Shown here one piece after another: positions 6,816 through 7,868 of a stretch of DNA of 64,000 nucleotides. How positions within the stretch are numbered: position 1 is the first letter of the stretch; each line of letters starts with the position of its first letter. Position numbers and translations under genes: made by a program. The stretch spans positions 30,318,001 through 30,382,000 of the forward strand of contig OX597833.1 of NCBI GenBank assembly GCA_951406725.2, given 5' to 3'. Origin of the DNA: Octopus vulgaris (Eukaryota). The notes beneath the pieces were generated by a model that saw only the letters and a list, made by a program, of their open reading frames with translations, made no database searches and had not been told where the DNA came from.

Positions 6816-7868
6816 ATAGTTATCGCCATACTAATATGGCATTCTTATAAAAATAAGAATAAATCTGTCCGCTTATTAGCTCCATGAGGCCATCGCCTTA
6901 AGTTAGTTATTTGATACACAAACTGTATCCATATAACCTTCGAACAAGGGAGGTCAGTCGCTCCACACTACTTGACCGGCAGCTACAGAGGCGTTTCGGG
7001 GTATTGCCCCTTTTCAATGCAGCGTAGCCAGACCAGTAGGTGTCGCTTCTGACAATCTCTGTTCGAAGGTTTTATTTACCTAGCTTCGGTGGAATACATC
7101 CACTTGTTTTCAATAATAGAAATATTAAAATTACTAAGTCTCTCTAAAAGAGAACAACGGCAGCGTTCCCGGAAAATAATAGTTATCCCCATACTAATAT
7201 GGCATTCTTATAAAAATAAGAAAAAAGCTGTCCGCTTATTAGCTCCATGAGGCCATCGCCTTAAGTTAGCTATTTGATACACAAACTGTATCCATATAAC
7301 CTTCGAACAAGGGAGGTCAGTCATTCCACACATTATTCTTATTTTTATAAGAATGCCATATTAAAATTATCCTCATGGAGCTAATAAGCGGACAGCTTTT
7401 TTCTTATTTTTATAAGAATGCCATATTAGTATGGCGATAACTATTATTTTCCGGGAACGCTGCCGTTGTTCTCTTTTAGAGAGACTTAGTAATTTTAATA
7501 TTTCTATTATTGAAAACAAGTGGATGTATTCCACCGAAGCTAGGTAAATAAAAACTTCGAACAGAGATTGTCAGAAGCGACACCTACTGGTTTGGCTACG
7601 CTGCATTGAAAAGGGACAATAACCCGAAACGCGTCTGTAGCTGCCGGTCAAGTAGTGTTGAGCGACTGACCTCCCTTGTTCGAAGGTTATATGGATACAG
7701 TTTGTGTATCAAATAGCTAACTTAAGGCGATGGCCTCATGGAGCTAAAAAGCGGACAGATTTATTCTTATTTTTATAAGAATGCCATATTAGTATGGCGA
7801 TAACTATTATTTTCCGGGAATGCTGCCGTTGTTCTCTTTTAGAGAGACTTAGTAATTTTAATATTTCT
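6816..7868. repeat. 363-bp monomer, ~1.4 tandem copies joined to ~1.4 inverted copies (retrozyme/pLTR-like)
   Basis: ATAGTTATC recurs at 6816 and 7179. The reverse-complement CCATATTAGTATGGCGATAACT recurs at 7421 and 7784. The unit is flanked by (TA)n and has no ORF. Confidence 0.88.
7600..7641 (+). ncRNA. Type I hammerhead ribozyme, U3-A8 core variant
   Basis: GCTGCA-TTGAAAA-GGG ACAATAA CCC-GAAA-CGCG-TC/TGTAGC. Stem I is 6 bp with one G.U, stem III is palindromic CGCG, and the site is GUC. A mirror copy lies at about 6982-7023 (-). Confidence 0.72.

Follow-up and report, generated by a model that had tools for sequence, protein, structure and literature searches.

An inverted insertion between two (TA)n tracts

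The 64,000-nt stretch of Octopus vulgaris DNA analysed here (the window) contains, between two long (TA)n target tracts (6450-6815 on the left and 7868-8867 on the right, neither with a strand), an island of 1,058 nt (6813-7870) built from two arms of the same tandem repeat. The left arm (6813-7331, minus strand, 519 nt) and the right arm (7371-7870, plus strand, 500 nt) each hold ~1.4 units, are 5'-truncated at 7331 and 7371, respectively, and stand head-to-head, with 98% complementarity between 6813-7252 and 7371-7810. The inversion junction between their 5' ends (7333-7370, plus strand) consists of 31 nt of additional unit sequence (7333-7363) and a 7-nt filler. At its outer 3' end the left arm stops at site A (…GGCGAUAACUAU) and the right arm at site B (…UAAUAUUUCUAU), each followed by (TA)n, so that the right end of the insertion alone carries a 'tail' (7811-7870, plus strand), that is, the span from site A, at about 7807-7810, to site B. 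The latter lies at 7870 in the window copy and at 7873 in longer copies. One 363-nt unit (7436-7798, plus strand) provided the reference frame, q1-q363, for all genome comparisons.

An earlier note on this DNA had placed the element at 6816-7868 and described an exact 363-bp period on both halves of an inverted arrangement, with one hammerhead per monomer. The element is real, with the slightly wider span given above, and the period is indeed exact and free of indels: in the left arm 6813-6968 matches 7176-7331 at 96% identity, in the right arm 7371-7507 matches 7734-7870 at 97%, and the other periods tried, 355-371, gave background identity on both arms. The sequence itself, at 96-97%, is not exactly repeated, and the hammerheads, although present, number one per ~1.4-unit arm and lie on opposite strands. 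Absent from that note was the main feature of the locus, its Penelope-type insertion anatomy.

The type I hammerhead of the right arm spans 7594-7645 on the plus strand (7600-7641 without its outer pairs). Stem I pairs GCUGCA with UGUAGC (7600-7605/7636-7641), the core UUGAAAA occupies 7606-7612 (U3 at 7606, A8 at 7611), and stem II (7613-7625) is followed by GAAA (7626-7629), the palindrome ACGCGU (7629-7634) and C17 at 7635, with outer pairs 7594-7596/7643-7645 set off by a UAC bulge. The combination UUGAAAA…GAAA…GUC, with a Watson-Crick 3-8 pair, is that of a type I core. A longer predicted stem (7555-7685, plus strand) encloses this hammerhead, pairing 7555-7563 with 7677-7685 and 7570-7574 with 7666-7670. 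The left-arm counterpart (6982-7023, minus strand) has the same U3-A8 core and an intact 4-bp stem II, and its predicted cleavage position would be after 6988.

Stem II had been thought to stay paired in both copies through compensation, a claim that failed on comparison with the family, in which the norm is GGGG-CAAUA-CCCC. The GGGA/ACCC of the right copy is private decay, found in 1 of 143 copies: substitutions at 7616 and 7622 set A opposite A, the pair is lost and the stem is one pair short. Contigs of four other runs have G at 7616 and C at 7622, with a minority T at 7622 in X10. The CGCC reported in stem III of the left copy was correctly singled out, being a private change at 6990 that breaks the palindrome and a singleton among the 143 copies. 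In predicted folds the right hammerhead taken alone forms stems I and II and leaves III unformed, and helix III gains stability only when two hammerhead copies pair. Rfam returned no hammerhead match, either at the gathering threshold or, over 6200-7900, at E<=10, for which the variant core and the weak helix III may account; the Rfam scans yielded only hairpin-driven miRNA-type matches, all of them sub-threshold.

Since the two hammerheads lie on opposite strands, one per strand, two cuts would not give a unit circle from this locus, and the suggestion that its transcript would release a 363-nt unit does not hold. Nor would an RNA read across 7635/7636, as had been proposed, be diagnostic of a circle, because tandem genomic copies have that junction as colinear DNA. 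The window locus, which has a single hammerhead on each strand, private changes in both of them and a read-through RNA that would be expected to pair into a 440-bp hairpin, is a decayed copy and likely a dead end.

A dispersed family of hammerhead repeats

Across the genome (2.8 Gb, 227 contigs), the 30-nt core had 892 exact matches compared to 0 for the reversed control, so the hammerhead motif is not a product of chance. The 363-nt unit gave 1,410 first-look candidates, the best of them 95-98% identical and lying on many contigs, and the family, judged by these copies, is both dispersed and young. The unit is also found in contigs of four runs, which bear four organism labels; these are assembled contigs, not on record as RNA, and are uninformative on ends, strand and circles. 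Tandem units of the family reach 5 hammerheads in arrays, and at least two consecutive hammerheads on the same strand occur at 15 of 40 other family loci, compared to one per strand at the window locus. In a four-unit array (L052) the longest ATG ORF has 38 codons in the sense and 77 in the antisense direction. A 363-nt tandem unit with a type I hammerhead and no coding capacity agrees with the earlier assignment to the non-LTR retrozymes.

Related groups extend the comparison. An older subfamily at 81% identity numbers 2,859 candidates, and further subfamilies exist, one of which (L193) emerged from a loose-end motif that had been pursued as a lead to Penelope-like elements (PLEs). A homologous family at ~60% identity, with a period of ~355 nt and 2,862 candidates, carries C3-G8: this pair is found in 22 of its 24 motif matches, the remaining two being one C3-A8 and one unrelated sequence. 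The proposal that positions 3 and 8 changed together is thus upheld as true covariation. When genomic copies of the 363-nt family were aligned, as had been suggested, 222 of the 224 segments, a sample partly chosen on the core, had kept U3 and 223 had kept A8; across subfamilies the helices covary. Among 15 variants picked by hand across the groups, 94.5% of the cells are paired and 10 of 17 pairs have changed on both sides, pair 3-8 being UA in 12 variants and CG in 3. Slid controls were paired at 26-52%, and 0 of 500 shuffles reached the observed paired fraction; because the variants are related and hand-picked, the 94.5% is to be taken as support rather than as a p-value. The three helices are, on this comparative evidence, backed by covariation, and the palindrome of stem III is preserved in three versions (CGCG, CAUG and CUAG).

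At looser stringency the U3-A8 pattern had 4,698 matches genome-wide against 490 for its control. A first canonical-core pattern proved too narrow (19 against 8 in the control) and was replaced by one of matched width, which had 3,040 matches against 161, so that hammerheads with C3-G8 are common here as well. Where position 17 is substituted, A replaces C (GUA) in 7 of 7 cases (L194, L197, L199, L200, L208, L209 and L210), and C to T and C to G were not seen among them; several of these loci share a haplotype, and the pattern is weak.

The U3-A8 core that had been flagged as unusual is not new. Natural U3-A8 covariation, together with earlier in vitro activity, was reported by Perreault 2011 (PMC3088659), and Cervera 2014 (PMC4209133) described ~1,300 U3-A8 motifs in Schistosoma, the minimal hammerheads of Cercyon PLEs, which occur as opposite-strand pairs 100-700 bp apart, are weakly active in vitro in their minimal forms, and for which circular templates were proposed. 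The octopus hammerheads resemble these in having the same 3-8 double change and in being tied to PLE-type repeats; unlike the Schistosoma minimal forms, they carry U3-A8 within a retrozyme hammerhead of canonical size and have C3-G8 homologues in the same genome. As a ribozyme curiosity the core is consequently ordinary; the family is of value rather as a test system, with natural C3-G8 and U3-A8 relatives whose rates can be compared side by side.

Non-LTR retrozymes were defined by Cervera & de la Peña 2020 (PMC7229834), with circles in mussel, coral and axolotl, units of 350-390 bp in mussel and 330/350 bp in axolotl, and PLEs named as their likely mobiliser. The octopus family is like them in its tandem unit of a few hundred nt (within 150-450 nt) without an ORF, in its type I hammerhead with a 6-bp helix I, a 4-bp helix II and a weak palindromic helix III, in a predicted self-paired circle, and in the presence of PLEs in the same genome. 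The circle was modelled on the unit of one locus (L012, which bears a private core change outside the stems), cut between two cleavage positions: it is predicted to fold at -122 kcal/mol, compared to -84.8±5.5 kcal/mol for 60 shuffles (z -6.8; 0 of 60 equally stable), and its two hammerheads are predicted to co-fold as a double hammerhead. Unlike those retrozymes, the 363-nt branch has the U3-A8 core throughout and is known here from genomic sequence alone. Li 2026 (10.64898/2026.07.22.740005), whose phylogeny links retrozymes to pLTRs and in whose hands 1 of 9 retrozyme dimers cleaved, calls a retrozyme 'active' when it has at least two consecutive same-strand hammerhead units; the window locus differs in having one hammerhead per strand. 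Head-to-head arms, a tail and two fixed ends are not described for retrozymes in the sections of PMC7229834 and Li 2026 that were consulted.

Two fixed ends and one haplotype per locus

The copies of the family have two fixed 3' ends, A and B, which lie 63 nt apart and shift in 3-nt steps (9/12/15 and 72/75) into the (TA)n that is found at nearly all 3' ends. We scored 140 loci (51 + 36 + 40 + 13; 7 further fetched loci had no match), all best hits or intact-core picks and hence a biased sample, though one not biased on ends, and found 88 inverted and 52 non-inverted. Both outer ends could be assigned at 73 of the inverted loci, the other 15 having an unassignable end, and 71 of these 73 combine A with B, with a single A+A and a single B+B. 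Non-inverted copies end at B in 28 cases, at A in 21 and elsewhere in 3; given these frequencies, random pairing would yield ~50% A+B, and the excess among inverted loci has a p of about 3e-19. In the C3-G8 family the B-end sequence is nearly unchanged and the rule is noisier (7 A+B, 2 B+B and 20 others among 29 loci). At L027 and L228, where the target was not TA, visual inspection revealed target-site duplications of 8 and 9 bp.

The 5' starts of the arms vary, and 82 of 158 arms exceed 440 nt. Starts are concentrated within q231-254 (32 of 158, compared to 10.4 expected, in an interval picked post hoc), which corresponds to the 3' strand of the long stem around the hammerhead. The outer ends of the inverted copies do resemble terminal inverted repeats, and local tandem amplification by unequal crossover is discussed in Li 2026, so that the family might be read as a DNA-level repeat (a satellite, a MITE-like element or a rolling-circle DNA element), with tandems formed by unequal crossover and the hammerhead a relic. 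However, fixed 3' ends, variable 5' truncation and asymmetric A/B termini fit reverse transcription, as do the presence of copies on many contigs and the clustering of truncations at an RNA stem, and the compensatory changes oppose a relic. We hold such an origin to be very improbable and already largely refuted.

Haplotypes bear on the template. Over 428 segments from 126 loci, recurrent-allele differences per 100 sites amounted to 0.19 within a strand and 0.22 between arms, compared to 1.82 between loci; both arms and all tandem units of a locus have one haplotype. Homogeneous linear multimers or local gene conversion could also explain this, and so would a fold-back of the first cDNA, in which the inverted arm arises by self-priming or on an antisense template after one RNA-primed event and endonuclease resolution makes the second end. 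Fold-back has been proposed for PLE inversions (PMC3846280), tail formation has been attributed to endonuclease resolution (PMC8557442), at 29 of 55 young A+B loci one arm could be contained in its partner, and at several loci both arms start at one palindromic point near q244. In the remaining 26 of 55, a few of which have internally broken arms and which include the window locus (519 against 500 nt), neither arm corresponds to a continuous part of its partner, and simple fold-back copying cannot have made these loci; non-inverted copies, moreover, use A and B as their end about equally often. We thus consider fold-back improbable as the general route. Taken together, the A+B rule, the shared haplotype and the 26 loci with mutually uncontained arms point to two priming events on one type of RNA, which was likely circular.

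Penelope-like elements as candidate partners

PLEs are known for an inverted copy, a tail at one end only and target duplications of 8-10 bp (Arkhipova 2013, PMC3846280; Craig 2021, PMC8557442). According to Frangieh 2024 (PMC11167929), the tail is the span between two RT start sites, and the anole Poseidon protein nicked and extended both target strands in vitro and was predicted to be a dimer, with a hammerhead that was protein-assisted and whose cleavage was dispensable for insertion in vitro. The octopus family shares with endonuclease-positive PLEs the 5'-truncated partial tandems, the inverted 5'-truncated copy and the one-end tail, as well as AT or microsatellite targets, duplications of 8-9 bp where visible, and a hammerhead with palindromic stem III. 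It differs from PLEs in having no ORF and a tail of 60-63 nt rather than the 30-40 nt reported for them, the latter counting against the explanation that we favour. Its start sites also match the (TA)n target briefly, whereas the anole enzyme started without homology (PMC11167929). At the family level, the structural features looked for in a PLE-mobilised retrozyme are present in the genomic copies.

A plausible candidate partner is a PLE with a 781-aa ORF (RT and C-terminal GIY-YIG), many intact copies of which are present in the genome. Its linker has the CX4CxxC motif of Neptune/Nematis PLEs, linked to microsatellite bias (PMC8557442); its terminal repeat has a U3-A8 hammerhead, UUGAUAA…GAAACAUGU, with the palindrome ACAUGU; it is flanked by (TA)n and has two ends ~40 nt apart, and its inverted loci (L117, L119, L128 and L092) have one of each end. 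The young autonomous element that carries this ORF (L113:781-5572 and L110-L125) also has an upstream ORF of up to 479 codons without a Pfam match and the hammerhead triplet GUU, which is GUA in a related subfamily. What the 781-aa PLE and the retrozyme have in common is limited to the U3-A8 core, the palindrome ACAUGU and the distal end CUAUUAU. Retrozyme units showed no meaningful similarity to 48 GIY-YIG/PLE loci (part of 6,136 candidates), the PLE loci scored at most 13.9 bits with our hammerhead model, and no autonomous parent PLE was found among the loci fetched. L126/L016, where a retrozyme arm faces a truncated PLE, was considered as a co-insertion and rejected, as 155 nt of another repeat lie between the two.

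From these comparisons we regard the family as a protein-free non-LTR retrozyme, and consider it probable that its RNA is what the RT/GIY-YIG protein of a PLE works on to bring about insertion. Multi-unit source loci would be transcribed, their U3-A8 hammerheads would cleave in dimeric form, paired by the palindromic stem III, and the cut unit would be ligated into a self-paired circle. The PLE protein, probably a dimer, would then nick both strands of (TA)n and begin cDNA synthesis on one of them at site A and on the other at site B, possibly helped by short UAU/UAUUAU matches to the target; RT would run past the unit junction, giving partial tandems, and often stall at the long stem, and the two cDNAs would be joined 5' to 5'. 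That integration is twin-primed on circular RNA in this way, with one subunit of the RT dimer always at A and the other always at B, we put forward tentatively, as an idea with a fair number of facts on its side that could well be wrong. If true, a single step would account for the PLE inversion, for the partial tandems and for the tail on one side, and animal retrozymes would be shown to move by PLE machinery.

The same protein might instead act on an uncleaved linear multimeric transcript of a homogeneous array, for which the arrays of 2-5 near-identical units in the genome are possible sources, with the hammerhead slow, protein-gated or incidental and circles uninvolved. The 5' truncations are not enriched at the cleavage site (10 of 17 matches compared to 10 of 19 at the control, a single position 14 nt downstream, with rows classed by eye and two of the 17 sharing one junction), many arms cross that site, and the anole PLE favoured unprocessed RNA, with no RNA ends at its hammerhead site (PMC11167929). 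A ligated circle, however, predicts continuity across the site equally. Moreover, the hammerhead has been kept by compensatory change down to 60% identity, which argues for selection on it, the unit is predicted to fold as a strongly self-paired circle, and mussel, coral and axolotl retrozymes of the same size are circular in vivo (PMC7229834). Insertion from a linear template seems to us rather unlikely on balance.

Whichever template is used, mobilisation of a non-coding retrozyme by a PLE protein would touch on two questions that the cited papers leave open, namely, which enzyme mobilises animal retrozymes and how PLE inversions and the one-sided tail originate (PMC7229834, PMC8557442, PMC11167929). 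Both can be put to the test in the octopus genome, which offers hundreds of assembled insertions of a short, young and non-coding family, an almost strict A+B rule for their ends and a PLE ORF that is still intact. A quantitative end rule and evidence for a shared template in a retrozyme are absent from the passages of the cited papers that were consulted.

Several further repeats were observed in passing. A degenerate, fragmented PLE ORF, 25-40% identical to the 781-aa protein, lies at 54172-55857 (minus strand) in the window. Within the same (TA)n tract as the island, 6214-6449 holds a second small head-to-head inverted element with a 165-nt palindrome and one arm ~70 nt longer than the other (tail-like), together with a weak-stemmed CUGAUGA…GAAAC motif near 6384-6407; it has relatives in L084, L246, L248 and L287 and is probably another PLE-derived pair. 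At L130:2968-4811, a 594-bp tandem of three units plus an inverted arm, in which a simple hammerhead scan found no match, may be another non-autonomous PLE-type element. An isolated C3-G8 hammerhead-like motif at L066:1487-1548 (minus strand), ~200 bp from a retrozyme insertion, has the GGCUACGCU leader and the ACGCGU palindrome in common with the retrozyme. Finally, a tandem pair of units, each ~290-295 bp long, occupies 9051-9638 of the window, with blocks that are 91-100% identical.
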